From the NCBI GenBank assembly GCA_965655095.1, contig OZ296653.1, positions 26,908,001 through 26,972,000 of the forward strand: a stretch of DNA of 64,000 nt, written 5' to 3'. This document shows positions 7,011-41,552 of this stretch, piece by piece (the first letter of the stretch is position 1; each line of letters begins with the position of its first letter). The DNA is from Haplodiscus bocki. Its lineage: Eukaryota. The position numbers and the translations under genes are program-made. Under the pieces are notes generated by a model. That model had not been told where the DNA came from. It ran no database searches and worked only from the letters and a program-made list of their open reading frames with translations.

Positions 7011-7014
7011 TAAG

Positions 7015-7199
7015 TAAGTTTGTATATGTAGGTATAACGTATTCTCTAAAATGGGGGAAACTTGTCCAGCACTTACATTCAATTGGATTTTAGAATTTTT
7101 TATCTTCAAACAAGGGCAATGAGTTGGTTTGTGTACCTAGCTGTGTGTTGCTATAGTTTACCGTGTAGACTTGGCCGTCACAGGCGGCAGCCTGCGACA
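7015..7199 (-). mobile_element. Inverted truncated LTR 5' fragment of Gypsy family B
   Basis: ccgtcacaggcggcagcctgcgaca (ending 7199) is the reverse complement of the LTR start, with the same flanking LINE sequence as 6654 and 45520. Confidence 0.85.
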
Positions 7200-13100: not shown

Positions 13101-16100
13101 CCCTCAATTGTGCTTCAAAACAATTTTGCGAAAATTACATTAGTCTTTTTTGTAAAAGAGGCCAGCCTTGTGTTTGGTTTGACGGATGTGGCACCAATTG
13201 CAGGCTTAGAGGGTAACAAAATGTTTTGTAAATTGAAAAAAATCAGGGAAAGTTTGAATAAGTTTTCTGCGTCGATAGGAAAAAAAGCTCGATGGAAACT
13301 TTTAGGCTGTGCGGCAAATGGATCCAATGACACAAAAATTGCGACTCCCTTTTGAAGCCGCTGAACTACAGCGCCTCGATTTGATGACCAATACATTTCC
13401 CTGGGCAACATCGAGTTTGACATCGTTTTACGTTTGTAGATTTGATCTTAAGTATTTTTTAGTACTCTGAGAAACTGAAAGCATCCCAATATCTTCATTT
13501 GAAGCGAGCTCGAAACAAATTGAGAGAAAAAACAAAAAAACTTCTTGACTTGGTGTTAGACAATCAACTTCCTGCAAACCAGTAGGCACCCACAAAGCAT
13601 GTAACTTGTTTGCAAACAGCATGATATCTTCGTGTCCGGTTCTTGTAAGTTTCCTAATAGTACAGCGTTTCTGCATTTTTACAAAATTGATCTTTCTGTA
13701 GTGACTCTGAAATTTTACGAATCCAATGTTCGTTTTTGGTCTGCTTATGAACGTGAGTGGAATGTTGAAACTGGCTTGAAATTAGAAAGGCAGTGTGGCA
13801 CAAACGCTAGAGCCAACAACAACTGTCCCATATTCCGTACAATTGTTGCTCTTTGTACCGATTTGGGTTCCTGTACCATTTGGAATTCCAAAACTTTTGA
13901 GAATTTTAACAATTTATCGTTCTGAAATCACTAACTTGGGCATAATTAACATCAAAAAAAGACGCAACCGGAAAGTCTCCATCGCATTTACATTAGGAGT
14001 ATCATCTTTAATTTCCGTAATCCAAGAAGCAAAGTTCCTAAAAGTGGAAACAACGATTATTGACAACCTTTGTTATCAAGCACACTTGGCAAACTTCAGG
14101 GGATAACTGTGACAAGCAGATCTAGCATCAGGATCCGGAGTCACAGAAGTAAAGCACGTAGCTCACTGAGGAAGAATGAACTGGGAAGTTTTGTATTCCA
14201 ACAGAAAAGTTTTTGGAACCATCGTTCAGGTTGACAAAACGCCTTCCAGGAGAATTTGGTTAGGGGAATACAGATCATGGAAAACATTTTTTCTCATAGG
14301 AGGAAAAACAGCCTGTAAGTAGATATTGATATTGTCAATTCCCACGCATGTCAGGTTTTCAAACGATCATCATGTTTCCTGAATTTGCTCAAGGCAGCCT
14401 GGTTGCCCAGACCGAAATCACAAATGGCAAAACGAGTTCTAGATCCCTCCATTTGGTGGAACGCGCAAAATGTTTTTGAAAACATTCAAAAACAAAGTGT
14501 TCATCCAAGAGAGCTGCAACCAAAATTATCTGCTTCTGATCGGCCGTTTTCTCACAAATTATGCGATAGTAAAAAAAATGATCATTGTCAAATCACGCAG
14601 AAGTTCATTTTTTTCTCTGGGCGCTTTAATACATTATAATTTTTGAAACCAGTCCTTCGCCAAAATCTTGAACAGTCCAACTTGTTGGCATTGCGAATTT
14701 AATCACTGAGATCCTGCAAGTATTCCTATTTTACTGGCCGGTTTTTCTTCATCATCGTGCTTTTCAATGGCACTATCTCTGTCCGTGGAGTGTTTTTCAC
14801 GAAGAAACGGAACTGGCAACTGTCTCTAATTTATCGACGATAGGAGCTCGTTTTGTTGTCTCCCAAAAAAATGCGGCTTGCGAACAGTTGAGTTCCACAA
14901 ACTGTCACTTTCAGAAAAACTAGGACTTTGCGTTCACTTTCAATTGTCCCACAGAAGCTGTGAAGCAACTGATACTGAATCTAAAGACAATCCCAGTCCT
15001 TTGCACTGATGGAACTACAAAACAGAACGGTATCAAACAGTTTTCGGTTAGAAGTTGAAACCTTTGTAAGATTTGGATGATCTGACATGTCAGGTGGCAA
15101 AGTCGTAGAGACAATGCATTTCTTCATCTGATTTACGCTTCGTTTTTTTCAAATCTGAAAGCGCTTTCTGAGGCAGTGACGTTGTTTTGAAGAATGACTG
15201 GCGCCACAATATTTTCTTGGGGTTAAGGAGACCGCCAAAAAACATACAAAATAGCACAAAAAAACAATGTCATTGCCTCAGAAACGAACGCAGTGGCGTT
15301 CAGAATTGAATATAACGAAACGTAGATCAAAACGAGGAATGCATTGTCTCTACGACGTTGCCACCTGACATATCAGATCATCAACAACTTACAAAATTTT
15401 CAACTTCGAATCAAAAACTGTTTGATACCGTTCTGTTTTGTAGTTCTATCAGTGCAAAGGACTGGGATTGTCTGTAGATTCAATATCAGTTGCTTCACAG
15501 CTTCTGTGGGACAATTGAAAGTGAACGCAAAGTCCTAGTTTTTCTGAACGTGACAATTGGTGGAACTCAACTGTTCGCAAGCCGCATTTTTTTGTGAGAC
15601 AACAAAACCATTTCCTATCGTCGATAAATTTGAGACAGTTGCTAGTTCCGTTTTTTCGTAAAAAACACTCCACGGACAGAGATAGTGCCATTAAAAAACA
15701 CGATGATGAAACAATACCGGCTAGTAGAATAGGAAAACCTGCACGAGCTTAGTGATTAAATTCCCTATGTCAACAAGTTGGACTGTTCAAGATTTTGGCG
15801 AAGGACTGGTTTAAAAAGTTATAATGTAATAAGGTGACCAGAGAAAAAAATGATTTTCTGCGTGATTTGACAATGATCATTTCTTTACTATCGCATATTT
15901 TGTGAGAAAACGGCCCATCAGAAGCAGATGATTTTGTTTGCAGCTCTTTTGGATGAACACTTTGTTTTTGAATGTTTTCAAAAACATTTTGCGCGTTCCA
16001 CCAAATGGAGGGATCTGGAATTCGTTTTGCCATTTGTGATTTTGGTCTGGGCAACAAGGCTGCCTTGAGGAAATTCAGGAAACATGATGATCGTTTGAAA

Positions 16101-18334
16101 ACCTGACATGCGTGGGAATTGACAATATCAATATCTACTTACAGGCTGTTTTTCCTCCTATGAGAAAAAATTTTTTCCATGATCTATATTCCCCTAACCA
16201 AATTCTCCTGGAAGGCGTTTTGTCAACCTGAACGATGGTTCCACAAACTTTTCTGTTGGAATACAAAACTTCCCAATTCATTCTTCCTCAGTGAGCTACG
16301 TGCTTTACTTCTGCGACTCCGGATCCTGATTTTGGATCTGCTTGTCACAGTTATCCCCTGGAATTTGCCAAATGTGCTTGATAACAAAGCCTGTCAACTA
16401 TCGTCGTTTTCACTTTTAGGAACTTTGTTTCTTGGATTACGGAAATTAAAGATGATACTCCTAATGTAAAAGCGATGGAGGCTTTCCGGTTGCGTCTTTT
16501 TTTGATGTTAATTATGTCCAATTTAGTGATTTCGGAATGAGAATTTGTTGAAATTCTCAAAAGTCTTGGAATTCTAAATGGTACAGGAACCCAAATTGGT
16601 ACAAAGAGCAACAATTGTATGGAATATGGGACAGTTGTTGTTGGCTCTAGCGTTTGTGCCACACTGCTTTTTTAATTTCAAGCCAGTTTCAACATTCCAC
16701 TCACGTTCATAATCAGACCAAAAACGAACATTGGTTTCCTAAAAGTTTCAGAGTCACTAAATAAGGATCAACTTTGTAAAAATACAGAAACGCTGCATTA
16801 ATTTTAAGCTGACGAGTATCAGAGATGATGATATCATGCTGTTTTCAAACCATTTTTTTGACTGCCTACTCGCTCTCAAAAAGGTGATTCTGTAGCGCCT
16901 AGTCTGGAACATAATGATTTAATCTCTCAATTTGTTCTGCGTGCGCGTAAAAAGAAGGTACTGGGTTGTTTTCTTATACTCAGAGTGGTAAAACAAAATT
17001 TCACGATCAAATCCGCCAATGCAAAATTTTTCGGACTCAATGTTTTCCAGGAAAGTGAATTGATCTTCAAATCACGACGACTTAGTTCAGCAGCTGGTAA
17101 AAGATGTCGCAACTAAATCGTCATATGGTTCATTCGCTGCACTGCTTAAAAGTTTTCATCGACCTTTGCCACCCAAGGAAATAGAGTACTTTTTGAAAGT
17201 TTTTTCAATGTTTTTCATTTTACAAATTTTTCTGTTACCTCTAAGCCTTCAATTGGCGCCCCATCAATCACAACAAAAACAACGCCGTCCTCTTTTACAA
17301 AAAAACTAATGTAATTTTTTACAAAAAATTTTGAAGCACCAGCGAGTGAAACAAGATTCTGCCTAGTACTTATAGGATTGCTATGTTTGATGCGCTGCAG
17401 GTCAGAGATTGGCAAAAACCGTCCCATACTATTTGTTAAAGGATCCTTTTGAGGCACTCGATAAAGCTTTCATCGCTTTTTGTCAACTGTAGAGTACTGT
17501 GCGTTTTTGAAAGTTTGAGAAGTTTTTTTTTACATTAAAAAGTAGCTTGTTTTTCCTCCAAACTGCAGTATCTTTTAAAGCAATGAGGTTTCCTAAGTTA
17601 GTATAGCAAAGAATGCAGCATTTTATCAATGCAAATCATTGTAGGTGGAATGAACTAACGTACCTAACAGTTATGTATCTGTGTGGTTTGATGTTCAAAG
17701 AATTGCCTTGAAGTGTGCAAATTCATAGTACAAGGTCTGTTTCCTACAATAGCAAGCTATCTACAAGTTTTAGAAATTACTAATAGGCTCACCAGGCCCT
17801 GCAATTGAAATGTTTTCAGTGGCTCGGGTAACATACTTAAAATTTGCTGACAAGAATCTGCCAGAACAGCAACTTTTTTAGTTTTCCGTCCCCCGGCATC
17901 ATGAACCTCATTTTGTGTAGTGATCTTTTAATAGCACATTTCTTCGGACAACGCTCTTTTCCAAAAGAAGCTGACAAAAACTGATTTTTTCCAGAAAATT
18001 GTTCTTTTGAGCTCGAGGTGACGAAGAAATAATTCATCGCCAATAGGTTTATTAAGCTTGCCCAATTGCAAATTGTTGGTTTGAGTTAAGATGTGTAAAC
18101 TATCTTCCTAGATGCGGATTGTTGGGAGAACAAATTTTTCGGAAAATTTTACGCTTTTGAGCATTGTGAAACTAAAGTTAAGTTCTATTCAAAAACATTT
18201 TTTGGACTTCTACAACAAATGTTGAGTTTAGAGATGTAACATCAGTTTTTTTATGCGGACGCAAATTTTGTCCTGAAAAAATCTTTTTGTGTCGGGCAAA
18301 AGAAGCTTATCTGTTTACAAAGGTGGTTCCAATT

Positions 18335-21300
18335 TATGGGCATCAGATGTTCAGTTGAGTCAGGAGAGGTCAAAACTTCTTCTTTGAACTGAATTCAAGA
18401 AAGATCGACTTTGTAAGAAATAATTCTGTGTTTGGCTGTGCCCGATGGACTTCTACTTGTTTTCGTGTAGGATCTTTTGGCTCCTCCAGACCCTTTGTCA
18501 AAACGCTAGTTGATGAGGGGTGAAAATATCTTTTCGATGTGTTTTTGCGGGGGAACATTTTCTTCAGTAGGTAGTTTTTTTCAGCATTGCTGGAAAAACG
18601 TCTTTTTTTGTTTTCAAAAGTTGTTTCTGAGAAAGCGCAAACTTTGGCAGCATGTGCTCAGTGGAGTTCAGATGAGTAAAAATGTCTTTTCAAAGCTAAT
18701 TTTGGAAAAAAAAGCTGCAACACACTCTTTTGTTCTCCGCAATGCCCACCGTAATTTTAACTGTTTTCAATTAACAAATTTAGGTTGCCCAAAAAAGTAA
18801 TTTTGATTGTTAGTTAAGTTTAGGGTGTAAAAAGATAGTCCTTTCAGACTTTGCGAAAGGGAGACAATTAAAGCAATTTTTTCGTTCAAAACAGTGGGCA
18901 ACAAACGCTTGGTTTCATATTTGGTTTTCGGACTCCCTCAAATCATTTTAGGCAGATGTCAAGTCAAAGGCGGAATGGTAAAACTTTGGGGTGTGGTTTT
19001 GAATAAGGAACGACTTTGCAGAAGAAATATTTGCTTTTAGCATTGCTCGAACGTCTACTTGTTTTCATGTTTGAAATTGGGACTCAATCACGTTTGCAGT
19101 CAAAAATTGAATTCATGGACTATATTGTATCGATTTCCATGTAGCTTTTTGAAAGAACAACATTTCCAAAGAAAACTATCCTCTCAGAATGCCTGATCAT
19201 TTTCGGAATTACTCAATGAAGGTTTAATTGTCATCAAATGTGTTTCAAAGGACGCCGAACTTTGTTCGTTTACGGTTAGCTGATCTCCGAGTTGTGAAAG
19301 AAACTTTCCGGTTCATTTTTGCGATCAAATGACGCTTTAAGAGAGAATTTTTCTTTTCAGTGAAGCCCAGTGAACGGTGATTTGTTTTCAAAGATGCTTT
19401 TGGTGTCGCCAAAACTTTCAGGTCAAGTTTTAGGTGGAATGAGGAAAATTCAAACGTCAATTTCAAAGGAACGACATATTCAGAAAGTGTAGTTTTCTTT
19501 ACATCCTAGGAAAATGAACCATCACTTATTTTTGAATCTGGTACCTGGTCGTGCTAATATTGTTCGTTACATGTTGAGTGATTTCGGAGATTTAAAACTT
19601 CTCTCGATGCGAAAGATCACCTGTTTCAGAAATTACTTTCGTTTGCCGTTCTTGCAACCAATGCTTGATTGTTTTTAAAGGCCCTTTTAGGCTCGTCTAA
19701 ACTTGTTAATTGAACGCTCAGTCAAGTTGAGAAGTGATAAACACCTTCTTGATACGAGTTCGTGGAAGAACGGAATTTTCAGAAACACTTTTGGTTTTCG
19801 GCGATATGAGACATATTCGATTGTTTTCAAATAAGGTTTTTTGGGCTCGGCCCCACGTTGGTTTTGTCTGTTTAGAGTCTAGGCATTAGAAGTACTTTCT
19901 TTATAGACCCAAGGCCTCGCAGAAAGAGCAATTTTTGCGGATTAGCATATTTGACTTTTTTTTGTCCATTTATACCCTTTGTTTTCCTATACTACTGTGT
20001 CCAGATGAACTTTTTGAGGAAAACTTTTTTTCATAAAAGGTATCAGTTTTCAAACAGTTTTGGACATTGAGCGAAAGTTGTTTGAGTTTTCTACAGAAAA
20101 CACTTCGAAAAATTTGTCAAAAATGCATTCTACGTGTCTGGAGGAACGTATTGGAAAACAACTGAGAACAAACTATGTGTTCAAGATTTTAGAAAACTAT
20201 TCGCACTTAGGACGAGAAAAGTTTCTGCAATTTTGAACCTTCTCCGTCAAAAACACCTATCTGTGAAAACCCCAAATAAATCTAACAAATCGCTAAGCAG
20301 CGTGTTCAAATCCTATCACAATCTATTTCCGTATACCTAAAACCAGAAAAAAAAACATTTTTATTTCAAACATTAAAATCAAGTCCGTCCTATGAGAGTC
20401 CTTTGAGCCACACCGGCGGTGACAATTTGGCTCTTCGCCGCTTGTTATCACGTGCAACGTGCCATTCAGTCTGATATGTTGCTGTGTAGTTACACTAGTA
20501 TCTCAGTACTCATACCCATACTGTTGATGCAGCGAAAACTCATGACTCATTTGTTTCAGGAAATTTGACGGATCTTCCGACTTTTGGCTTACAAACAACA
20601 TGCTGATTGGCCATGACTTGTACGCCCATTGGCTTTTGAAGTCTTTATGGGTATCAGATGTTCAGTTGAGTCAGGAAAAATCAAACCTTCTTTCTTGAAC
20701 TGAATTCAAGAAAGAGCGATTTTTTAAAAATTACTTCTGTGTTTGGTTTAGCTCGATGAACATTTACTTGTTTTCGTGTATGGTTTTGGTCTCCTCCACA
20801 CCTTTTGTCAGAACGTTAGTTGATAAGGAGTTAAAATATTTTTTCGTTGTGTTTTTGCGATGGAACGTTTTCTTCAGTTGGTAGTTATTTTCAGCCTTGC
20901 TTTAAAAACGTTTCCTTGTTTTCGAAAGTTGTTTCTGAGAAAGCGCAATCTTTGACAGCAAGTGCTTAGTCGAGTTCAGACGAGTAAAAATGTGTTTTCA
21001 AAGCTAATTTTGGAAAAAAAGCTCCAACACATTCTTTTGTTATCCGCAAAGCCCACCGTACTTTCAACTGTTTTCAATTAACAATTTTAGGTTGCCCCTA
21101 AAACGGTTATTGATTGTTAGTTAGGTTTGGGGTGTAAAAGGATCGACCACTCAGACTTTGTGAACGGAAGACAGTTTAGGCAATTTTTTTTCGTTCAAAA
21201 CAGTGGCCAACAAACGATTGCTTTCATGTTTGGTTTTCGGACGCCCTCAAATCATTTTAAGCAGATGTCAAGTCAAATGCGGAATGGTAAAACTTTTTGG

Positions 21301-24300
21301 GTGTAGTTTTGCATAAGTAACGATTTTGCAGAAAGTAAATTTGCCTTTAGAATTACCCGAACGTCTTTTTGTTTTCATGTTTGAAATTGGGACTCAATCA
21401 CATTTACAGTCAAAAATTGAATTCAAGGAATATATTGCATCGTGTTCTATGTAGCTTTTCGAAAGAACAACATTTCCCAATAAAACTTCTTTTCAGAATG
21501 CAACATTTTTTTCGGAATTACTCAAGGATGGTTTACTTGTCATCAAATGTGTTTTAATGATCGCCGAACTCTGTTCATTCACGGTTAGCTGATCTTCCAG
21601 TTGTGAAAGCAATTTTCCGGTTTGACTTTGCGAACAAATGACGTTTTAAGAGAGTATTTTTATCTTCAGTGATGCCCAGTGAACGGTGATTTGTTTTCAA
21701 ATGTGCTTTTAGTGTCGCCAATTCTTTTAGGTCCAGTTTTAGGTGGAAGAAGGAAAATTGAAACGTCAATTGCAAAGGAACTAGATATTCAGAACGTGTA
21801 GTTTTCTGTACATCCCAGCAAAAGGAACCATCAGTTATTTTTGAATATGGTACCTGGTCGTGCCCAAATTGTTCAATACATGTTGAGTGGTTTTGGAGAT
21901 ACAAAACTTCTCTCCATGCGAATGATCAACGGTTTCAGAAATTACTTTGGTTTTCCGTTCTTGCAACCAATGCTTGATTGTTTTTAAAGGCCCTGTTGGG
22001 CTCGCTCGAACATGTACATTGAATGGTCAGTCAACTTGAGAGGTGATAAACAACTTTTTGATGCGAGTTTGCGGAAGAACGTATTTTTCAGAAAACACTT
22101 TTGGTTTTCGGCGATATGATACATGTTCGATTGTTTTCAAATATGGTTTTTGGAGTCGGCCCCACGTTGGTTTTGTCTGTTTAGAGTTTAGGCATTGGAA
22201 CTACTTTCTTTATAGACCCAAGACCTCGCAGAAAGAGCAAATTTTGCAGATTAGTTTTGCATTTTTGACTTTTTCTCTCCTTTTATGCCCATTGTCCTTC
22301 CTATAATACTACGGTGTCCGCATGAACTTTTTGAGGAATAACTTTTTTTGATAAAAATTATCTTCTTCGAAATGTTTTAGAAATTGAGCGAAAAGTTTTG
22401 GTACTTTTTACAAAAATCATTTCGACAGGGTTGTCAAAACAGCATTCTACGTGTCCGGACGAACGTATTGGACAACAAGTGAGAACAAACTATGTGTTCA
22501 AAATTTTAGAAATTTATTCGGACTTTGGACGAAAAAATTTTCTGCAATTTTGAGCCTTTTCCATCAGAAGCTCCTATCTGCGAAAATCCTTTTTAGGTCT
22601 AACAAATTGGTAAGCATCGTGTTCGAATCCTATCACAATCTGTTTTCGTACACTTAAAACCAAAAAGAAAACATTTTTGTTTCAAACATTAAAATTAAGT
22701 CCGTCCTATGAGAGTCCTTTGAGCCACACCGGCGGTGACAATTTGGCTGTTCGCCGCTTGTTATCACGTATAACCTGCCATTTAGTGTGATATCTTGCTT
22801 TGTAGTTACACTAGGATCTCAGTACTTAATCCCATACTGTTGATGCAGCGAAAACTCATGACTCATTTGTTTCAGGAAATTTGACGGATCTTCCGACTTT
22901 TGGCTTACAAACAACATGCTGAAGAAAGAGCAATTTATTAAAAGTTCTTTGTTTGGATCAACTCGATGAACCTTTACTTGTTTTCGTGTATGGCTTTGGT
23001 CTCCTCCAGACCTTTTGTCAATACGTTAGTTGATAAGGAGTGAAAATATATTTTTCGATGTGTTTTTGCGAAGGAACATTTTCCTAAGTCGGTAATTTTG
23101 TTATTTTCATCAGCATTGCCTGGAAAACGTTTTCTTGTTTTGGAAAGTTGATTCCGAGAAAGCGCAAACTTTGACAGCATGTGCTCGGTTGAGTTCGTAC
23201 GAGTGAAAATATCTTTTGAAAGCTGATTTTGGAAAAAAACTTTAACACACTATTTTGTTCCCCGCAATGCCCACCGTACTTTTAACTGTTTTCAATCAAC
23301 TTTTTTAGGTTGCCCGTAAAATGGTTATTGATTGTTAGTTAAGTTTGGAGTGTAAAAGGATCGTCCCTTCAGACTTATTGAACGGAAGACAATTTAAGCT
23401 TTTTTTTCGTTCAAAATCGTGGGCAACCTTTTAAGCAGATGTCAAGTCAAATGAGGAATGGTAAAATTTTTTTGGTGTAATTTTGCATAAGGAACGACTT
23501 TGCAGAAAATACTTTTGCTTTTAGCATTGCTCCAACGTCTACTTGTTTTCATGTTAGAAATTGGAACTCAATCACCTTTGCAGTCAAAGATTGAATTCAT
23601 TGAATATATTGAATGGTGTTCTATGTAGCTTTCCGAAAGAACCACATTTCCGAAAAAAACTATCCTCTCAGAACGCATTATCATTTTCGGGAATTACTCA
23701 ACGAAAGTTTAATTGTCATCAAATGTGTTTTACAGATCGCCCAATTTTGTTCATTTACGGTCAGCTGATCTCCGAGTTGAAAAAGCAACTTTCCGGTTCG
23801 ATTTTGCTAGCAAATGACGTTTTAAGAGAGTATATTTTTTTCAGTGATGCCCAGTGAACGGTGATTTGTTTTCAAATGTGCTTTTGGTGTCGCAAAACGT
23901 TCAAGTCAAGTTTTAGGTGCAATGAGGAAAATTCATACGTCAATTGCAAGGGAACCAGATATTCAGAACGTGTAGTTTTCTTTACATCCATCACTTTTTT
24001 TTGAATATGGTACATGGTCGTGCTCATATTGTTCACTACATGTTGAGTGATTTCGGAGTTACAAAACTTTCTCGATGCGAATGATCACCGGTTTCAAAAA
24101 CTTTTTTGGTTTTCCGTTCTTGCAACCAGTGCTTGATTGTTTTTAAAGGCCCTGTTTGGCTCGCCCGAACCTGTTGAGTGAATGCTCAGTCAATTTGAGA
24201 GGTGATAAACACCTTTTTGATGAGAGTTTGCGGAGGAACGGAATTATCAGAAACACTTTTGGTTTTCAACGATATGAGACATGTTCTATTGTTTTCAAAT

Positions 24301-25098
24301 CTGGTTTTTGGGCTCGGCCCCACGTTGGTTTTGTTTGTTGAGAGTTAAACATTGGAACTACTTTTTTATGGACCCAAGGCCTCGCACAGAGAGAGCAAAT
24401 TTTGCAGATTAGTTTTGCACATTTGACCTTTTCTGTCCACTTATGCCCTTTGTCTTTCCTATAATACAAGGTGTCCGGATGAACTTTTTGAGGAATACCT
24501 TTTTTGATAAAAATAATCTTTTTCCGATTATTTTTGGACATCGAGCGAAAAAAGTTTGGACTTTCTACGAAAATAATTTCGGCAGGGTTGTCAAAACTGG
24601 ATTCTACCTGTCCGGAGGAACGTATTGGAAAACAACTGAGAACAAACTATGTGTTCAAGATTTTAGAAAACTAATCGCACTTAGGACGAGAAAAGTTTAT
24701 GCAATTTTGAACCTTCTCCGTCAAAAACTCCTATCTGTGAAAACCCCAATTAAATCTAACAAATCGGTAAGCAGCGTGTTCAAATCCTATCACAATCTAT
24801 TTTCGTATACTTAAACCAGAAAAAAAACATTTTTGTTTCAAACATTAAAATCAAGTCCGTCCTATGAGAGTCCTTTGAGCCACACCGGCGGTGACAATTT
24901 GGCTCTTCGCCGCTTGTTATCACGTACAACGTGCCATTTAGTCTGATATGTTGCTGTGTAGTTACACTAGGATCTCAGTACTCAATCCCATACTGTTGAT
25001 GCAGCGAAAACTCATGACTCATTTGTTTCAAGAAAATTGACGGAGCTTCCGACTTTTGGCTTACAAACAACATGCTGAACGTCCATGACTTGTACGTC
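18335..25098 (+). repeat. Three diverged tandem copies of a ~2.2-2.3-kb unit (~18335-20643, ~20644-22921, ~22922-25098)
   Basis: The block aagtccgtcctatgagagtcctttgagccacaccggcggtgacaatttgg...aaacaacatgctga recurs at ~20381, ~22697 and ~24853. A single inverted copy lies at ~9650-12345. Confidence 0.88.
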
Positions 25099-27059
25099 TG
25101 TCGCAGGTTGCCGCCTGTGACGGCATGATCTACTCCGTCAATTACAACGGGCAGAACTCAGTCACACAGAGCTACGCTCTGCCCTTATTTGAAGACTAAT
25201 ATAATAGAACTAGCCTTTAATAAACCGCTGGAAAAAAACCCCCCACCACTTTGAAGTTATATTTTTATATATACTTATATACTAATATATAAATATATAT
25301 ATATAATCTTACAAATATTTATGTATTTATGCGCAAAATCCATACAAATATCGATGAAGCTTGTATCATGAAGGAAAGGTCATAGACAAATGTTTATAGT
25401 GCTCAACTTATTTGCAGTCTTATACTCAAATTTGATTGGTCAAAGACAAGCGATCGTATCAAACACTGACCAAACAGAAGCGCCGCCTAAACATGGTCAA
25501 AATTGGTCACTGGGACCTAATTTTGACCACTTTGCTCAGTGCCAGTGGTCGCTTCCAAACGAAAGGCGAAATACGGCCAAATGAAACCAGAAAGCCAATG
25601 TATGAACAGACATAATTAAAAATGTTGCTATGTACTTATATAAACATATAATTATGTGATTATGTGTTGTAAAATTATTTAGTGCCAATAATTATTAAAT
25701 CCTGAGTGAAAAATATTACCTAGTCAAAAGACGGTCATTGTGCCCACTTTTGACCACCATACTTTGACCTAAAATTAAAACCTGTGTATAAACCTTAATA
25801 TTATAATCATTGCCATATTTAGTATATTATAACTATATTTAACCATCCATTATATGAAATAAGCATGCAAACATGGTTTTATTATCCCTGAACATTTATC
25901 CAGTTTCCATGACCATATTTTGGTGGTCATGGTTTTGCGGCATATATTCTTTGATGCTACCCATATTACTATTTTTAAAACTAACGTCATGATGACGAAA
26001 CATATATTTCGGGTTAAACCTCTTTGATGTTGTTTATATTACTATTTTTAAAACTGACGTCATGATGACGAAACATAGTTCGGGTTGAACCCCCTTTGAT
26101 GTTTAATATAAATAGAACCCGAGGACATGACGTCAAAGAAGTGAGCCCTCCAATTGGACAGCGAAGATGAGGAAAAGGGGGCGAACCTAAAAGAAAAATC
26201 ATCGCCAGAAGAGTGTTTTTCCATCCTGAAAACAGTTCACTGTAACGATCATTTAAACTGATGCAATTTATTTGTGGATTATCTGTATTGTAAGAGAAGA
26301 AAACTGCCCTCTTCAAAACAGACGATTATAATACTCTTTGAAACTGACATTATTCTTTGTCCCTGTTAAAACACTTTACAAACATTGTAACTTGAAGTAT
26401 CATTTCATTTTTGTGTCACTGTTGACTTTCGCTGTTATTACAATTCAGTTATTAAACAAACATGGTTTCTACCAGAAAGAAAAGGCAGTCAAGCAAAAGA
26501 CTCCTCAACCAATTAGATGATTTTGATCAGGACGTGATCATTGGCAACACCACAAGCGAGAGGCCAGAAAATGTTGTGGTCAATGGGGGTGTTGATGACC
26601 AGGATTTTACCGGTGGTACTTCTAATGTTAGTTCAATAGTTAATGAGAACGCATTGAATGTGAAAACTTTGGAAAGGTGTTTTAACGAAAGGATTGATAG
26701 GGAAATGAGCAATATTGTGGACACAGTTGAAGATAGGATACAGAATGCGGTTTTGACCGCCATTGATAACATTGTCACTCCTAAAATTGAATTAGCTATT
26801 AGGTCAATAAATGCATCCTCTGGACAAGATGTGACCAGTGCGTCTGGAAACTCAGAACGTAGGGAATATGAGGGGATTAACGCCTCTTTTGAAAACGCAT
26901 CTGCAAACAACAGAACATTAGGTATGGCTAATACGAACGATGAAACTCGCCACGATTTTCATGACGGAGTGAGCGAATTACCGGTCTTAGAGGCACAGTT
27001 TGACCGGCAACTAGCTACTCACCACATGCCGTCAGGAGCTAGTAGCGAAGTTCATCACA
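25099..27059 (+). repeat. 5' LTR of family A element
   Basis: TGTCGCAGG...GAAGTTCATCACA. Colinear with 39581-41541, differing by about a dozen substitutions counted by eye. Confidence 0.95.
25964..26160 (+). promoter_or_regulatory. Putative LTR promoter/enhancer: ~73-bp direct repeat x2, CRE-like TGACGTCA (26055, 26128), TATAAATA (~26107), CCAAT (~26150)
   Basis: Motifs read directly. TGACGTCA also occurs about 300 nt upstream of gag in the family-B LTR (46637). Function is inferred. Confidence 0.45.
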
Positions 27060-28435
27060 TGGTGACAGGAGTTAAAGAACGCCACGACATGCTGACAGAA
27101 GGTTCACAACAGATACACAACCGTCATCACATGGTGACAGGAGTTAAAGAACGCCACGATATGCTGACAGAAGGTTCACAACAGATCCACAACCGTCATC
27201 ACATGATGACAGGAGCTAAAGAACAAATTCATAACCACCATGACATGGTGGCAAGAGGTGCAGAAGAGTTTCGCAATAGTCATCACATGGTAACAGGACA
27301 AACAGCCCACATAAACCAAATCCCTGAGTTCTTGACTGGACGCACTCAAACATCACGCAACCCGTCATCTCACCAATATCAGAACCTGTCAACACAAGTA
27401 TCACAAGACAACAATTTACCAGTGGTCGAACATACACCAACACATCAAAATTTAGACGCAAACAACTCCATCAATCGTCTAGCTGACGCAATTGCTGGAA
27501 TTACCACCCAACAACCATCACAAGCAACCATAATGCTCAAACCAGTATCCACAAGCACACTATCTTTCGATGGCAAAAATGAGAAATTCGAACTATTTGA
27601 AGACCTTTTTCACACAATGCTCAAAATGCAACCTGAAAAGACAGAAGCCATGAAAATTAACCATTTTCATGCTCATTTACGAAAAGAAGCACTTCAAACA
27701 TTCAGAAACATCAGTGCAGTCAATAAAAAAACTCTTGATGACGTATTAATTGTTTTCCGACGCAAATATGTCAAACCCGAATCACAAGCTACAGCTAAAC
27801 ACAAATGGCACAAACTTACATTCGATCCCAATACAAAATCACTCCCTGATTTCTTAGAAGAGCTCAACGAATGTGCCGAAAAAGCGTTCGGTGACAACGC
27901 CCAACACATGATTGACAGCTTATTATACGCAAAACTACCACCCCATTTGAAAAGATCACTCAACTTAGCTCATTTGGAAAACGGCACGTATGACCAGATA
28001 GTGGCACATCTTGAAAGAGAGCTAGAACTCAGCGGCTTAGAAAATGATGGTGAGTTGACAATACCCACAATGACAACCGTTCCACTAAATGATAACCAAC
28101 AAAACACTGAACAAACAAAAGTAGTATGCTACTACTGTAAAAAACCAGGCCACGTAATCCGAGATTGCCGTAAACGAATGAGAAAGGAACAGGAACGGGG
28201 GAATGATCCTTCAACCCAAAAGATGAAACCTTCGACATCTAAAACATATGCACCATGTCCTCATTGTCAACGGACAAATCACCCTCCAGAACAGTGTTGG
28301 AGCGGTCCTAACGCCGCTAACAGACCTAAACGGTTCAAACAGGCGTATCCAGAAGACAATCAAAATGATGGGCAAAACCATGGGAATTTGACCTATTCAG
28401 GACCATCATCAATTCTCAAAAACTCTTTAAACTAA
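26462..28435 (+). CDS. gag: Gag polyprotein (657 aa) with two CCHC zinc knuckles; start codon lies inside the 5' LTR
   Basis: CYYCKKPGHVIRDC and CPHCQRTNHPPEQC knuckles, capsid-like FDGKNEKFELFEDLF region, and position upstream of pol. Confidence 0.92.
   Translation: MVSTRKKRQSSKRLLNQLDDFDQDVIIGNTTSERPENVVVNGGVDDQDFTGGTSNVSSIVNENALNVKTLERCFNERIDREMSNIVDTVEDRIQNAVLTAIDNIVTPKIELAIRSINASSGQDVTSASGNSERREYEGINASFENASANNRTLGMANTNDETRHDFHDGVSELPVLEAQFDRQLATHHMPSGASSEVHHMVTGVKERHDMLTEGSQQIHNRHHMVTGVKERHDMLTEGSQQIHNRHHMMTGAKEQIHNHHDMVARGAEEFRNSHHMVTGQTAHINQIPEFLTGRTQTSRNPSSHQYQNLSTQVSQDNNLPVVEHTPTHQNLDANNSINRLADAIAGITTQQPSQATIMLKPVSTSTLSFDGKNEKFELFEDLFHTMLKMQPEKTEAMKINHFHAHLRKEALQTFRNISAVNKKTLDDVLIVFRRKYVKPESQATAKHKWHKLTFDPNTKSLPDFLEELNECAEKAFGDNAQHMIDSLLYAKLPPHLKRSLNLAHLENGTYDQIVAHLERELELSGLENDGELTIPTMTTVPLNDNQQNTEQTKVVCYYCKKPGHVIRDCRKRMRKEQERGNDPSTQKMKPSTSKTYAPCPHCQRTNHPPEQCWSGPNAANRPKRFKQAYPEDNQNDGQNHGNLTYSGPSSILKNSLN
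27020..27307 (+). repeat. In-frame tandem array of eight LTR-end/primer-binding-site-like units (CAYSAYA-TG(G)TGACAGGAG consensus); active PBS at 27060
   Basis: Units start at 27020, 27053, 27083, 27125, 27155, 27197, 27239 and 27281 (spacings 33, 30, 42, 30, 42, 42, 42 nt) and encode H(H/D)M(V/L/M)TG-like peptides. Confidence 0.85.
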
Positions 28436-28500
28436 AAAAGCCACGACTCCAATGGGCAGATTACACATCAGTCAGACAATATGTTATATCTGACCCACCC
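28426..28500 (+). promoter_or_regulatory. Programmed -1 ribosomal frameshift signal (T TTA AAC plus downstream stem)
   Basis: Heptamer 28426-28432 is in correct X XXY YYZ phase immediately before the gag TAA. The -1 frame is open from there into the pol ORF. A GTCAGA...TCTGAC inverted repeat lies at 28471-28494. Confidence 0.85.
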
Positions 28501-31500
28501 CCTACAATATATCACTCTCATCAAACCCTCAACACAGGAATTCCATCAGTTGTCTGGCAGCAACAAATGGAAAAAGCCTATATTCGAAGATACAATACCA
28601 CGCATGTCATTCACAAAACATATCCAGCGTACGAATACGACTACACAGACAACTTCGACACTTACTTCAGACCCCTTGCAGAAGTCGTTGCATACGACCC
28701 ATACTTTGTTGACCCTCAATATGGATTGGATCCCTATTGGGATGACGAAATTTATGATCAGGACAAATTGGAGTACAAAGATACTTACAATAAACCTAAT
28801 GATCAGATCGAATCCGATGATCCGATCACGGATGCACATGTATCACACGCACTACGATACGCAGTGATAGATTTATGGACAGTCAATCCACAATTACCTG
28901 ACACATCACCGTTACCACACTTCCGACCGAGACCACCAAACCAACAAAGGCAAAAAGCAGTCATCGATGACCAAATTTTACCACAGCTCCAGGTAACGCC
29001 AGACGGACTCACAAGGTTTCTCCCGCTCTCAACAAATTTGCCATTAAAAAATAAACGAAAAATGCTTTATTTTCCAATGGATTTCGGGGAGTTAAATATT
29101 GATGGCCTCATAGATACAGGTGCTTTGTCAAGCGCCATTCCGGAAGCCGACTTACGCAAAATTCGATTACTCGCCCCACATACAATATTAAATGAAGGCC
29201 CACCACCTGAGTTCCAAATTATGGTTGCCAATGGACAGTTAGAAGCACCTACTGCAACAGTAGAATTGCAATTCGAAGTCGGTGACATTACGTTCAGAGA
29301 AAAGTTCATAGTTATGACGAACCTCACAAGCCCTTTGATCGGTCTCTTATTCCTACAACGCAACAGTACTATTCTAGATATGCGTCAAGGAATTCTGAAT
29401 TTTCCCTTCTTTTCAATGCAATTGAAAAATGAAGATCGGACATACCCAAACGTTATTGAACCCATAATCAACCCAGTAGATACTACGCTACAACCGGGAA
29501 AACGAACCACAATTTGGGTAAAATCACAAATTTACACGGAAAACGAAGCGACAGGCATAATCCAACCTTCGCCACTTCTGGAAAACGACGAAGATCTCCT
29601 TATTTGCCCAGCAATTTCGTCAACCCAAAACAACAGACATATGGTCCAAATCAGCAATTTTCTAGACCATCCGTATACTCTCAAAAAAGGAACACATATG
29701 GCAAATTTCTCCATATTGACTCCTGAACAAACAAAGCACATTCGACCAGTCAACCCTACTTCGGTGAGACATTTCCTCAACAGTAATCACGATGACGCTA
29801 TTCATTACATAAATAGCCTTCTGAAGACATCGCAACCGGATGAAGTCAATGAGACCTACTGGTTTCCAACGACACAAAATCCGGGCAATGAAAAGGAACA
29901 TACGCCCATACAGACACGCATTCTTAATGAACTACGAGAATTGGAACAATTAGAAAAATTAAATCCACTTGAAAATACCAAATCCCGAAGCCAATTTCTA
30001 TCTAATTTCGATTGGACAGATTCTACTTTACAACCGGATGCCAAACAAGCCGTTGAAGACCTGCTCGTGGAATTTCATGATATCTTTGCGCGACACCGTT
30101 TTGACATCGGAATCAACACAGAATTCAAAGTACAACTCACACCACTAGACAATAGGCCTGCTTACAGTCAAAGCCTCCCAGCTCCGATAAATCTCAAAGA
30201 TGATATCCTTGTGGAACTAGCCCTATTACACAAGTATGGTATCATCACAACACTACCCTTCAGCAAATATGCTAGTCCAATATTCGCACAAAGGAAACCA
30301 AATGGGAAACTACGCCTATTAGTTGACCTTCGGAAAATAAACACACTTATTGCAGATGATTACATCAACAACAACCACCCAGTCAGTACATTAACAGATG
30401 CAGCACAACACATGGCTGGGAAAAATCTGTTCTGCAAACTCGATTGTTCCCAAGCATATCATTGCCTCCAAATGGCCGACCAACAATCAATTGAGCTCCT
30501 TGCATTTAATTTTGCAAGCAGAACATTCGCGTACCGAAGATTGGCACAAGGACTTAGCCGTTCCCTATCAGCATTTTCAAGCTTCATACGCGAATACCTC
30601 GACCCAGTCATCAAAGCTGATCAATGTGCACAATACGTCGACGATATTGGCATAGCCGCCAATACCCCCGAACAATTAATCAAAAACTTACGAGCAGTTT
30701 TCCAATGCTTGCGGAACGCTGGCCTCAAACTCAGCGTGACCAAATGCCATTTCGGAGTACAAGAAGTAGATTTCCTTGGACGAACAATAACAACCAAGGG
30801 GGTTGCCCCTCAAAAACAAAAGATTGCTAAATTCCTTGAAAAAGTCAAATTTCCACGATCCAAAAAAGCACTCCAACGATACATCGGATTCTTGAACTAT
30901 TACCGGAATTATATACTTAGATTGGCAGAACGGCTCACCCCGTTCTTCCAGCTACTCAAAACAACCGATGCCAAAGACAAAATACCGATTACACCTGATA
31001 TCATGAAAGAGTTCAGGGAAATAAATGACGCTTTAGACCGATGTTGCCAATTGGCATTACGTCAGCCATTACCCGGTAAACAACTGGTCCTAATGACCGA
31101 TGCAAGCTTTCAAGCAGCTGGTTACGCAGTATTAATTGAAGACGATCCAAACCAAAAGTTTACTTCAACACGCAAAACTTACGCTCCTATAGCTTATGGT
31201 TCAAAAACATATTCACCATCCCAAATCAAAATGCCCATCTACGCAAAAGAAATTTTAGCCATCTATATGGCCTTCAAAGAATTTGGACATATCTTTTGGG
31301 GCGCCACTAAACCAGTGATCATCATGACAGACAGCAAATCGGTCACCAGATTCTTTCAAACAAAGATGATCCCCCCACCCTTATGGAATGCCTGTGACTT
31401 TGTATTACAATTCAACTTTACTATCGCACACATTCTAGGTAAAATGAACACTGCAGCAGACTTCTTATCTCGTTTGGAGATGGACCCTAATGAAAAAATC

Positions 31501-33790
31501 ATTCTAAAGATCAGAGAAGACATTCAAATAAAACCAATCGAAGTAAACATTGAATCTACAGGCATTGCACAAGAAGAACCGGTCTTCTTTGATCCCACAG
31601 ACCAACAAGAGACCACGGAAAAAGAACTCTGGAAACGTAAAGAAGAAGTACGAAATGCCATACCTAATGAACCACCAGTCATAACAGTGTCCTGTTATTA
31701 CGCCAATGACCTACACAAAGATACAACAATTGTGAACATAGCACAATTGACGAAACCATCACGCATACTCATCGAACAAGACTCAGATCCAACCCTACTA
31801 AATTTCAAACGTGAAATGCTGGGATTACCATTTGACGAACAAATTTTACTAAACGACGCACGTTACATGCACTACTCCAGAAACAAGAAGCGTATCATCA
31901 TCAAGGATGACATTCTCTACCGACAAAACTATAACGATATCGGCGAAGTCAGTCACCTACAAGTCCTTTTGCCCGGACAATTACTTAAAGTGTTATTACA
32001 ATCATTACATGGGACAGCTGGCAAACACCCAGGTATCTCAAAAATGATGCGAGAAATTCGTCAGAAATACTATTTCACTTCAATTGCACCCCACGTTCGA
32101 AACTGGGTTCGTGACTGTGAGATATGCATCCATGACAAACGCATAAACAACACACGAATAACCCCAGAAGTAATCCACATCCCAGAATGGGACCTCGGAC
32201 CAGAAGATCTCATGCAAATTGACTTATTGCCAGAATTACCGCCAAGTGGAGGTTATGAAAATATCATTACGGCGATAGACGTATTTTCGAGATACGCATT
32301 CGCCTATCCAGTATCTAACCCCACAGCAGTAAATACAGCCAAAGTTATCATAGACATTATGACAAGACATGCTTATTTGCCTACCCTCATTATAACAGAC
32401 AAAGGAAGCGTTTTCGTCTCCCAAATCATACATGAAGTCGCTGAAATATTGGGCATCAATTTGAAACATGCCACAACAAAACATGCACAAACCATCGGAG
32501 TCCTAGAACGGGCCCATGCCACAATCAAGACCTCCTTGAAAATGGCATCAGGCGAACACAGAAAACAATGGCATAAATACTTACCTATCGCCATTTTGAA
32601 TTACAACACGACATACCATTCCAGTATCGATTGTGAACCAAGCCGAGTATTCCACGGCAGAGTACCACACAATATTTTAGACCACAAACTTGGATTAAGA
32701 TTCAATCCCAATATCACACCTACTACAGACTTTGCTGAAGAATTACTACGGCGAACCAAAATCCTCTACGACAAAACCAAGAAAAACGTCATGCAGTCAT
32801 ATATCAAATACAAACGATATTACGATAAAAAAAGCAAAAGCTTCACCTTTAAAAGAAAAAGATTACTGCTTTATCCTTCAGCCAAATGCAGACCATCAAG
32901 GGTCAAAAATACCGTTCCGTGACTTCCGATGGATTGGTCCCTACATAGTAGAAAAAGTATTACCAAACAATAATTACATTGTGCGAAAACTCAACACAAA
33001 CAAAACTCAGATTCTACACAGAATTCGTCTCCGAAAATACAACCCTGAAAAACGCCCTGAAGCTAATTATTCGGAAGTGCCATGGCAAACCGACGACAAT
33101 ATTGTTGTCCCGCAGGACGATTTATATACAATTGCATGGGAAGCTGAATTCGGCGGACACCTCTTTGATCTTCCCATCATATATACCGATCCCAACGCAA
33201 TTGACTTTGATGAAAATCACACACAAGGACCAGATACAGTCATTGTCCCACGCTCTTATTTCCAAAACTCAAACAATGGTCAAAATAGGGAAATTTGCCC
33301 CATTTCTGACCAACCAGTACCGCGAACTTTAACACCTACATCGAATGGTCAAAATCAGGAAATTGAGACCAGTACTGACCCAACTCAAAATGATAGCACC
33401 AAACACATTTATGACTCAAGTACCGACGCTGAAATTACATGTAAACCTGTCACACAACCACCATTAACTATGAGTGACACTTCATCAACGCTTGATGACA
33501 ACATTCCCACAGCTGAAAACACTTCCAAAAATGAGTCCGACCACTCTCGAGGCGGTAAATACAACCTACGCCCCAATCCCAATCCTAATTACTCAGAAAT
33601 ATACAGATATCGATGTGTGCAACATTTTATTTTCAGCCCCATTTTTGCGCGTCATTATCATTTTTCATTCTATCTTTTGCGCACACTCTACTCATTTCTT
33701 TCCTTTTTCTTTTCTTGGGGCATATACAAAATTATCAAGAACGTCAACAAAGCCAAACTACAATCAATCAAAAAACAACAAACTAATTAA
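28426..33790 (+). CDS. pol: Pol polyprotein (protease, RT, RNase H, integrase with GPY/F tail); one frameshift at an A7 run (~32827-32833)
   Basis: LIDTGA (protease), LRLLVDLRKIN / KLDCSQAYH / YVDD (RT), TDAS (RNase H), H-x5-H...CEIC and QID/TDKG/LER (integrase). The frame continues as KAKASPL...RWIGPYIVEK in ORF 32732-33790. Confidence 0.93.
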
Positions 33791-33815: not shown

Positions 33816-36800
33816 TCAGGACGATTCAGTGTTCGAAGTTTTGCGCTTTGATCGCAACTTCCCAGATAGCAAATCAGCTACTCCACGATAATGCGTCTTA
33901 CTAATATCGATGCGAGGCCGCTGCGCTGGACGACGACGCTGTTCTGGTAGTCTCTCAGAGACAAACACTGGTTCACTCAACGATGCAGATGACTCCACAT
34001 CACTAGCAACCTTCACCGCCTTGTATGATTTCTCAAGCTCAGCTCGAATTTTCTCATAATCGTGATAATTGACAAATTCCCAGGGATTATAACCACACTG
34101 CAGAGCACAATCGCCAAAAGTCTCGAGCAATTCCATGCAACACGAAATCGACTCGGGATCAGTGAAAAAGTTCTCCTCAGTATCACAACCCAAAAGATAC
34201 CCCTGCAGCGGCTCCACAACTGACGACAAATCAACACTCGCCACTCCAACTTTACTTGAGCCAAGCGAAACATCAGGCACTTTTGGGGTAATATGACCCA
34301 AACACAAACAACTCAATTTGAACAGATCCCATGTATACTGTCTGCGTGACAATTCAGGGCAAGACGACAGGAAAGAGACCATATCGTCAACATCTGGACC
34401 AACACCCAACTCGTTCAGATAAACATGTCTCACATCGTCTACGAACTCTATGTAGTCGTCAGCGTGCACGTTCCGCAACTCCCGTGCAACCCAACCCCGG
34501 GAACTGAAGCTTTGGAATAAATGTTGGAAGCAGTCAACAGCAACAGTCTTCGGTAACTTGAACAAAACTCCATAATCAAAGCAAGCTAGCCCAATAACCA
34601 AGTCTGACTTGAATGCGGGATGTCTCACTAACTCCTTAACCACATATTTAACGTATTGTCTGCCCTGGTCAATGAAAGGATTGAAAGACTCGCCCATCAC
34701 CGTCTTCGCCACACTATCCGACTTCGCCTTCTTCCCACGCTCACGCTCCACATCAATTTTTGTCTTGGCGACCTTCAACACTTTGGACCGGAATTCTGTC
34801 TTTCGCATAAATTCAAAGATGCTCAACAGCTCACCCACAGAAAAATCAAAGGATCGCAATGCATCCCAATCCCATTCAGATGGCAGACAGCCACGAGACA
34901 CAACCCTCCGCAACAAACGATGTAAGAAGTCACACAGTTGACCGCACAAGAAAAACCCTTGGTCACGACTGGGCACTGTTGACCGTTTGAAAGCCTCCCG
35001 GTACTCTTGCACAATCACTTTGAACAGTTCCAGACGAGCTTCGAAATAAGGATCACCAGTGACTTGACTATCCAAAGCTTGAACCTAAAATACGAGACAA
35101 TTAAAAACGTTATCACTTGCATTCAACCACATAACAACTATACCCACCCTCCCCTGCACGTGCTGGAACTCTTGACGTTGACTAGTACTGCTGATATATG
35201 CCACAATTTGGGGCCAATGCGCAATCATCTCTTGAACAACAAGGAAAGCAGTGCACAACTCTAATTTTCCATCTTCCAGAGCCTGCAAACATACAATTAT
35301 CAGTCAGCACTTATACTACCAAGACAACCAAAGGGCAACATTACCATTACCTACCATTCTGAAGTACTGTGTTGACTGCACCCAGCGTTCATCGAGGAGC
35401 CCTTTTAACCGCAACAAAAGAGCACGCAACATCGAACACATGTCGATCCTCCCCATCACACTGAAGCTGGGTTTGTGCAACAAACGCTCAAACTGCATAG
35501 GTGTCAACGAAAACGGGTACTGAACACCCGCCTTCCGACCAGGACTTTTATCCAGAACTTTCACAAAGTCAGCATTTGAGCCGCCACAACAAATGATGGT
35601 CGCATCGCCAGAAATCGCACTCAACAATCGGGAAACAAGATCAATATAGCTTTTTGTGGGCGGAACATCCCTTCCACAATGTAACATGGGCAGGCACACC
35701 AAACGCTTGCCCTCCCAAAAACACAGACTCAATGTGCGGCGATGTGAGCTCACAGAAAATTCAATGGAGTATGCCCCCTCACGAGCAATACTAGATGACA
35801 CATGTTTCACCAACTCCAGAAACAGATGATGCAGCAATCCCTGAAATAGCACAAATCGCATGAAAATTAATACCCCCCATACTCCAGCCGGTCAAATACA
35901 AAAAATCCCGACGACTTTTGACTCTACATGTAATACCCACCCAAACAGACTATCAATCCATGGGCAAAAGATGGCACAAATACCAGATTATGACCATAAC
36001 AAAATATGCTCATATACGTACGGAAATGTGGCTCGAGCTCCAATTGAAGTCAGCAGTGCTCGCAGAATGACCCGTCAACACTCCCACCTGGGTCCAGTAC
36101 TCCTCCAACGTCCACAATTGACCTCCTCCACGCAGGAAAATTAACAACAACTCAATCTGTATCAAAGTCCGTGAATTTACAGAGGTAAATGTAAAGGGCT
36201 TCTCTTCCACAACATAATAGAACGGACGTTTGTGATCCAACTCCGGCACATCCAAGTGCATGAACAGCTCCCTCTCCGCTTCCAACTTCGACCCATACAG
36301 TGTACGTCCATCCGAGCCACGTACCTTTGAAGGATAGTACCGGGCACGAAACCTCTGATCAGCCCTCAGATGATGCTCCCGTTGGAAGTGGCGCTTCAAC
36401 TCATATAATCCTCGAGATCTCATGGACACGTTCCTCCTACAAAGCATGCAGTAGAAGCAATGACGGTTCTTCAATGGGTTTTCTGGACCAGTAGCAAAAA
36501 CTTTCGCAAACGGGGCGAGCTCCAGCATCTCCTCGGTGAAAACATACCCACCACCATCTGACCCACTGGGCGAAATTGGGTTCGGTCGACCTTCTCGTGA
36601 CCACTTATACAATTCACCTTTTTTCAGCACATCGGAACGAATTTGCCCAAGAGTCTTCAAACTGTCCGTGTCATTAAATTTGTTCACTTCTGTTCGAGAG
36701 AAACCCAAAACTGCATCTGCCTGACGACTCGAACATGGTTGCTGTAATTGATCACTATCCAATGATTCCGTAATTGTTGGCAAAGAATAGAAAGATCGAG

Positions 36801-37935
36801 AAGCCACACTATCCACAACTGTAGACCCTGACCCACTACGTGAAACAGACCGCCCACTTCCCCTCTCACCAACATTTCTCCCAGGCTTTCCACCAATCTT
36901 CAAAAGAATATCCTCCAGCATTCCAAAAGTGGCCAAAGAAACTTCTAATCCGACGGCCCTGGCAAATTGTATCATTTGATCCGAACTCAGTCCGGTCAGT
37001 TGCTGATGCGGATCCAATTGCACAGGCGGATTGTCAGCGAAGCACTCTTTCAACAGGGTCCTTGCAGACTCACTGGGGTAGTATTTCGACCGCCCACCAC
37101 CCAAACCAGGCTGCGCTGTGGCTCCAGAAACAGCTGGAAGATCAGACTCTACAACTTCAAAAACCCACCCCCCACTCAAATTATCGACTCGTCTTCGGGC
37201 AATTGACTCCAACTCTGACGTACCATACTCTGTGTCATCCAGTCGGGAACTACTAGGGAACGACTGCCCAGTATCTGACATACCAATCACAGGATATCTA
37301 TTACACACCGATTTCCCAATTGAGTCTTCCACATCAAATGCCACACTTTTTGAAGGCCGTTCATCTGCCACGTCAAGCTCCCCATCACACAACGGCCGCT
37401 TCATCCCGACACCAATCTCCTGGCCCCCCAACTCCGCACGCAAAATCTTATCCACCTGACTCCTGGGAAATTCATTGTCACCAGTTACCATGCCACGCCC
37501 TGTATTATCCCGATTAACCAGATTCGAATCCAGCAACTCAAGCACTCCAGCAGGATCAACCTCCGCAATACTCTCTATTCCATCACCCCCCAGCGCTTCC
37601 AGTTTATCTCGCAAAAACTTCTGCAGTCCTTCACTTCCTTCGTCACTACTCGACAACAGACACTCTTGACTACCAACAGCAAAACTCTCCTTATCCACAT
37701 TCCCGCGTTCTTCACTCATTGTCTTTTTACCACCCGTCACTTGCAAGACTGCCAAACTTTTCGACGGAGAAGTTCCTGTCTCCTCAATCATCACGATTTC
37801 TACTCCGCTCCTCCGGGGAAGATCGGGGTAGTTCTCACTTTCTTCAGTGTTGCAGTCTTTAGGCACGTTGGATTCGTTCTCTAAACAATGGAAACTGATA
37901 AATTTACGTGGCAACTCGCCAGCATATTCGCCCAT
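33816..37935 (-). CDS. Predicted spliced antisense gene, ~1267 aa, BED zinc finger / hAT-transposase-like; exons 37935-36022, 35840-35355, 35282-35148, 35084-33816
   Basis: Four consecutive minus-strand ORFs are joined in frame by three phase-0 GT-AG introns: TCC|GTACGT..TTTCAG|GGA, ATG|GTAGGT..TTGCAG|GCT, AGG|GTGGGT..TTTTAG|GTT. FYCMLCRRNVSMRSRGLYELKRHFQREHH is a BED-type C2H2 finger. The start codon is uncertain (first ATG used; the frame is open to 37983). Confidence 0.75.
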
Positions 37936-41541: not shown

Positions 41542-41552
41542 ACGTCCATTAG
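40944..41552 (+). pseudogene. Gag N-terminal ~199 codons carried by the 3' LTR, running into flanking DNA and stopping after NVH
   Basis: Near-identical to Gag residues 1-199; diverges exactly at the LTR end. Confidence 0.85.

Follow-up and report, generated by a model that had tools for sequence, protein, structure and literature searches.

An in-frame array of LTR-end and tRNA-Leu primer sites within gag of a Ty3/gypsy element from Haplodiscus bocki, and an LTR boundary that differs among related subfamilies

The end of an LTR is usually taken as fixed. Here, we describe a Ty3/gypsy lineage that offers a natural record of stepwise movement of this boundary, in the form of dated copies, TSD-checked pairs, and preserved tRNA copies. 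In the element found in the 64-kb stretch of DNA that was analysed (the window), the working LTR end and its primer-binding site (PBS) form one unit of an eight-unit array that lies inside gag. This array is probably a stack of old and spare LTR-end/tRNA-Leu primer sites that arose from reverse-transcription errors and are kept if gag remains in frame, the end of a subfamily usually lying at the first intact one. The ratchet that we propose is static in the subfamily of the window copy and mobile in its kin.

Element and array

The window contains a 16.4-kb Ty3/gypsy element flanked by a matching 5-bp TSD. Its two LTRs, with termini TG...CA, differ by 13 mismatches in 1961 bp, and the element is young; the 1.5-Gb host genome holds many relatives of it. 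The parts of the element are as follows.

25094 to 25098, plus strand: left TSD, a 5-bp match with the right TSD
25099 to 27059, plus strand: 5' LTR, TG...CA, 1961 bp, the last ~600 nt of which encode the Gag N terminus
26462 to 28435, plus strand: gag ORF, starting in the LTR and running through att and PBS, with a zinc knuckle and a weak Retrotrans_gag match below the cut-off
28369 to 33790, plus strand: pol (protease-RT-RNase H-integrase), in two overlapping frames in the window copy
39581 to 41541, plus strand: 3' LTR, which carries unit 1 (41502 to 41534) and has the att of unit 2 as its terminus
41542 to 41546, plus strand: right TSD, matching the left TSD

The order of the pol domains is of the Ty3/gypsy type, and the RT matches include Ty3 and foamy virus structures. 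The gag frame is open from 26456 to 28435, with an ATG at 26462, ~600 nt inside the LTR. In five of six comparisons, mismatches in the LTR-coded part of gag number 53 to 62 at third codon positions and 24 to 32 at first and second positions, a difference of about 2-fold; the counts for the closest relative are 19, 14, and 22 by codon position. Judging from these substitutions, LTR-coded gag is under coding constraint. Upstream of the 3' LTR (39560 to 39580), a pyrimidine run is followed by a short G-rich end with no clear polypurine tract; the sister clade carries a purine run.

An eight-unit, in-frame att + PBS array inside gag had been reported in a preliminary description of this DNA, and we found it at the same positions and in a single frame. 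The att starts lie at 27020, 27053, 27083, 27125, 27155, 27197, 27239, and 27281, with spacings of 33, 30, 42, 30, 42, 42, and 42. A search of the 64-kb window with the 18-nt motif, allowing at most 3 mismatches, returned nine sites on the plus strand, namely the eight units plus the copy of unit 1 in the 3' LTR, and none on the minus strand; the array is beyond chance. The same description had assigned a single such site, at 47505, to a decayed family B, which the motif search recovered at 4 mismatches, and had named units 2, 4, 7, and 8 as those that retain CA/TGG, as they do. Sequence common to the units is limited to a core of 7 plus 11 to 13 nt, and the spacers fall into 30-, 33-, and 42-nt classes.

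27020 to 27052, plus strand: unit 1, former boundary, now inside the LTR, PBS decayed (3 mismatches in 11)
27053 to 27072, plus strand: head of unit 2, working LTR end (27059) and 13-nt PBS for tRNA-Leu(CAG/CAA)
27083 to 27124, plus strand: unit 3, PBS decayed
27125 to 27144, plus strand: head of unit 4, a second perfect 13-nt PBS, with no LTR end found there genome-wide
27155 to 27280, plus strand: units 5 to 7, PBS decayed or weak, spacers resembling distant sister-clade units
27281 to 27299, plus strand: head of unit 8, one mismatch in the window copy, with downstream sequence that matches the downstream sequence of single-site relatives
47498 to 47515, plus strand: single att + PBS site of a decayed relative (family B), from the 18-nt motif search

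Primer tRNA

The PBS had been thought to be one mismatch from a tRNA-Leu(CAG)-type site. This needs correction: the host tRNA-Leu(CAG) and the intron-bearing tRNA-Leu(CAA), which have a common 3' end, pair with units 2 and 4 at 13/13 positions. The other six units pair less well, with predicted tRNA duplexes of −16.1 kcal/mol for unit 7 and −13.4 kcal/mol for unit 8 versus −24.0 kcal/mol for the perfect site. Six-unit copies mostly have a 12-nt PBS match in unit 4. At the working site, the PBS match is perfect in 28 of 31 copies, one of the remaining three rows being misaligned. Among the host tRNAs listed, the tRNA ends that fit units 7 and 8 were those of minor tRNA-Leu variants and of a decayed tRNA-like repeat, and no second primer was found; a check with ARAGORN also missed the intron-bearing tRNA-Leu, so that its negative outcome carries little weight.

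Several observations on tRNA-Leu sequences were made in passing. The decayed tRNA-like repeat family is dispersed (L354 to L368) and is not called as tRNA. Intron-bearing tRNA-Leu(CAA) occurs in a large tandem cluster with a 424-bp period and acceptor-stem variants (L070 to L072, L347 to L350, and L369 to L383; C1 from ~161.09 Mb). Three independent 18-nt copies (L247, L251, and L253) have a common two-base variant that no tRNA gene in the assembly was found to carry, a hint that some variant of tRNA-Leu is missing or has been lost.

LTR boundary in the subfamily and across the lineage

Thirty loci of the window subfamily were picked by the sequence upstream of unit 1. Sixteen are 5' LTRs, with 4 (2 loci), 6 (10 loci), or 8 (4 loci) units, and all 14 LTR ends (14/14) lie at unit 2; one ten-unit copy exists, and unit number in the subfamily ranges from 4 to 10. 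Genome-wide, the unit-2 context is followed by a non-T base in 48 matches and by the PBS in 52. No LTR end of this subfamily at units 3, 4/6, 7, or 8 was found among the genome-wide matches to the downstream contexts: the patterns of downstream att followed by a non-T base, which are blind to ends followed by T and to mutated copies, gave 0, 2, 1, and 2 matches, of which four are internal and one is the LTR end of another subfamily. A second perfect site is present in seven elements (the window element, five pairs with a TSD of 5/5 or 4/5, and one further pair; a close sister subfamily contributes two of the seven), all of which nonetheless end at unit 2. RNA accessibility was set aside as the cause of the use of unit 2 over unit 4, given that the predicted difference is small (unpaired, 0.38 versus 0.24).

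Since every LTR end found for the subfamily lies at unit 2, the downstream units of the window element were not seen in use. The preliminary proposal that the boundary steps along the array is supported at the level of the lineage, among subfamilies and related elements, but not within the window subfamily. A uniform end unit and an absence of downstream units complementary to a host tRNA had been named as the marks of an ordinary coding minisatellite; the window subfamily has the first, whereas unit 4, through its 13/13 pairing with host tRNA-Leu, departs from the second.

Among relatives, the boundary lies elsewhere. In single-site relatives, the LTR terminates at the sequence preceding unit 1 (5 ends in a set of 30 loci), and since these relatives share the upstream sequence, we interpret unit 1 as the old boundary. 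In samples likewise selected by the sequence upstream of unit 1, LTRs of a subfamily that retains an intact unit 1 end at site 1 (15/15 ends), and those of a subfamily in which units 1 and 2 are dead end at site 3 (17/17 ends); in another subfamily, two LTRs end at site 4. These boundary counts, like those of frame and decay given below, refer to related copies and not to independent events. On a tree of 26 LTR tails that included 10 of 40 site-2 rows and 8 of 16 site-3 rows, with 4 misclassified or duplicate rows removed beforehand, the boundary states need four changes, which is the minimum possible; the tree was rooted at the midpoint, and the direction of change rests on outgroup proteins. 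Five Gags, 33 to 56% identical, each carry one motif, so that a single site is the likely starting state. Overall, the boundary lies mostly at the 5'-most unit with an intact CA and PBS and rarely further downstream, the exceptions being L149, L155/L259, L160, L340/L341, and L352/L334. The likely reason that subfamilies end at different repeats is that copying errors add repeats and the first working site usually wins.

Origin of units

The genome has 59 places, versus 0 for the control, where an att precedes an 18-nt tRNA copy, a length that the search pattern demanded, such that shorter copies were uncounted. Among the 30 places examined, which form 14 groups by downstream sequence, 5 run on into the tRNA, and in the other 25 the copy ends at base 18 or no more than 2 nt from it. 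Base 19 of the copy faces tRNA position 58, methylation of which we take to stop plus-strand strong-stop synthesis. Units that start with 18 bases of tRNA copy are, on this junction pattern, likely the fossil of a misplaced plus-strand transfer.

One such unit, 105 nt long and present in 7 of 30 loci in one sample, combines an 18-nt tRNA copy with 87 nt from the LTR end of another subfamily, in frame. The 87-nt part is identical to the donor LTR end at 75 of 87 positions, and the LTR that bears the unit is 94% identical to the LTR of its own subfamily and 34% identical to the upstream part of the donor's. At another locus, L232, a 33-nt unit is composed of tRNA copy and 15 nt that resemble the element's own LTR end. 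None of the eight units of the window element bears the 18-nt signature, and their origin is therefore inferred from relatives. Many 30- and 42-nt units could be ordinary slippage products, and in L234 and the 42-nt cases, an existing unit may have been overwritten by the tRNA copy rather than a new one created. The 30-nt units of the window match sister-clade units at 27 to 28 of 30 positions and the 42-nt units at 32 to 35 of 42, with flanks at background (0.35 to 0.41 versus 0.35 to 0.36 for shuffled sequence); this likeness points to exchange between the clades at the shared core.

At L231, L250, L251, L256, and L257, the junction is followed by a long read-through copy of tRNA-Leu, which in L256 and L257 covers almost the entire tRNA and mismatches it at base 19. 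There are also tandem arrays of ~2.45 kb at L253 to L255, L386, L387, and L398 (C6, ~41.98 Mb) and at L242 to L246 (C4, ~57.29 Mb); in the C6 array, each repeat is made up of an LTR, an 18-nt copy of the tRNA, and unrelated sequence of ~0.65 kb.

Ends downstream of an intact site

Found through a targeted pattern, L352/L334 is a whole element (TSD 5/5; LTRs 98.0% identical over 2089 bp) that ends at site 5, with site 3 intact in both LTRs, while L309/L310 (TSD 5/5) and L316/L317 have the same five-unit array but end at site 3. The solo LTR L149, with two perfect sites inside, and L160, with four units, both have a TSD of 5/5. The terminus of L340/L341 (TSD 5/5) lies downstream of a perfect 18-nt site, with which its unit is predicted to pair. 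As read from these termini, priming in individual elements has taken place downstream of a site that is intact.

Thirty sister-clade loci, whose LTR tails are at least 94% alike, comprise ends at site 1 (11), site 2 (13), and site 3 (1), ends after the 105-nt unit (3), and 5' LTRs (2); 11 of the ends have a TSD of 5/5 or 4/5. A reading of L176, L182, and L188 as a non-autonomous family was wrong, as TSDs are present at L176 and L188 and each of the three ends after the 105-nt unit.

An ordinary coding minisatellite, with the junction trapped among slippage repeats and no role for priming, would account for variation by whole units (4, 6, 8, or 10) that leaves the frame intact and for a boundary that stays put in the window subfamily, even in the seven elements with a second perfect site. 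Slippage likely describes the recent change in copy number within that subfamily. As an account of the array, we regard it as unlikely: it leaves unexplained the presence of unit 1 inside both LTRs, the subfamily ends at sites 1 to 5, and the tRNA copies of exactly 18 nt at the start of units, and it is contradicted at the lineage level by L352/L334 and the 105-nt unit.

Reading frame and decay of unused sites

All gag-linked arrays in the clade of the window element (48/48) span a multiple of three; for arrays called sister clade, of which one row (L322) is misclassified, 17 of 23 are in frame. Of 45 arrays with an intact upstream site, 25 have an intact last PBS, versus 11 of 12 arrays without such a site (related copies), and in the subfamily with an intact unit 1, the last site is decayed in all 10 of the arrays shown. 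Single-site elements (n = 16) have 3 PBS mismatches in total. At least two intact sites are held by 31 of 57 arrays. Unused sites are poorly kept, and a by-product therefore fits better than maintained spares. Selection aimed at the TGG of spare sites was ruled out, as PBS position 6 changes as often as position 3.

A different reading is that the junction is an evolved modular socket, in which several in-frame primer sites would be kept, the choice among them made by local RNA pairing, and the shared core employed for exchanging LTR/Gag-N modules across distant clades and for buffering tRNA-fragment silencing. The 105-nt unit does have a stretch complementary to the PBS directly upstream of it; we find this reading unlikely.

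The preliminary description suggested adaptive spare or decoy sites, extra PBS copies that would act as a buffer against PBS mutation or silencing by tRNA fragments. Two divergent clades and many subfamilies contain arrays, more than one site is often intact, and a priming-versus-silencing trade-off at the PBS has been argued for mouse ERVs (PMC7472051, in the part drawn on here). We nevertheless consider this quite unlikely, given the decay of unused sites and the near-perfect upkeep of the working one. Every intact site, moreover, matches one tRNA, such that one fragment would hit all of them. Selection for a His-rich Gag N-terminal repeat, with the primer-like DNA incidental, would fit the conserved frame and the coding constraint on LTR-coded gag but is very unlikely, as repeat number varies from 1 to 10 with many amino acid changes and the conserved residues are those spelled by att and PBS.

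Proposed mechanism

The preferred reading, a by-product stack of LTR-end/primer sites, would proceed as follows. Its starting point would be a gag that begins in the LTR and crosses the junction, as observed here, with a single site, as observed in distant relatives. Plus-strand strong-stop DNA carrying the 18-nt tRNA copy would then land upstream of the PBS, at the element's own or a relative's LTR end, and create a new unit, a step suggested by the junction sequences; units would subsequently be duplicated, deleted, and traded between clades via the shared core. The ratchet would be tolerated because gag must stay in frame, and the surviving arrays are those in frame. The boundary would settle at the first site with an intact CA and PBS, the pattern seen in most of the lineage, and rarely further down. 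Decayed upstream sites would be copied into both LTRs, making return hard, and the boundary would thereby ratchet downstream. In the window element, the ratchet would have moved once, by 33 bp.

Comparison with known systems

The GAG of Ty1 also starts inside the LTR, and the Ty1 LTR end is fixed. Engineered retroviral vectors with two PBS (Voronin and Pathak, 2004) can reportedly initiate at both sites; those vectors are artificial, whereas the arrangement described here occurs naturally, keeps the frame, and is heritable, and in this clade the upstream site is strongly favored. As in yeast Ty1, in which cis-elements for reverse transcription lie within the GAG region and the 5' UTR is 53 nt (PMC3592414), the priming elements here lie in the gag region. 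Ty1, however, is a copia-type element with one PBS, and the part of PMC3592414 drawn on here describes no array for it. Drosophila gypsy and yeast Ty3 resemble the present lineage in having more than one site for the primer tRNA, but their second site is located at the distant 3' end and pairs with a different part of the tRNA (PMC1635307, in part), while the sites here all pair with the CCA end, stand in tandem, and each have their own LTR end.

Retroviruses copy the tRNA into the PBS, and Ty1 and Ty3 inherit the PBS; this lineage mostly inherits a PBS of 11 to 13 nt, as Ty elements do, and sometimes fixes an 18-nt tRNA copy. The part of PMC7472051 from which that background comes covers point changes in a single noncoding PBS; it deals neither with newly formed units nor with a boundary that moves. 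Two templates are needed for the 105-nt unit, in contrast to the second transfer of retroviruses, which is cited as intramolecular (PMC12789967, in the part consulted). In the literature searched, with subscription papers outside its scope, we found no precedent for a natural in-frame primer-site array with a moving LTR end, and this variant of Ty3/gypsy junction architecture is real and apparently undescribed.

The lineage opens two questions to tests on genome data: the choice in vivo among several primer sites, and the fate of plus-strand strong-stop DNA in Ty3/gypsy elements. It further suggests a route for LTR lengthening and for the exchange of parts between divergent families, and it calls for caution in PBS and LTR annotation, in which the wrong site can be picked.

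Surroundings in the window

The region between pol and the 3' LTR contains further ORFs with no Pfam match: 36010 to 37995 (minus strand; 661 aa, with a Cys/His zinc-finger-like motif), 33816 to 35084 (minus), 35316 to 35891 (minus), and 38713 to 39681 (plus). The element is set in a tandem repeat of ~2.2 to 2.3 kb with an inverted block (8701 to 25098). The first bases of the LTR recur at 6654 (plus), 7199 (minus), and 45520 (plus), within a 3.4-kb repeat with long inverted arms (3630 to 8746 and 42497 to 45862). A homologue of Bardet-Biedl syndrome 5 occupies 1302 to 2375 (plus) as a single open frame of 357 aa.
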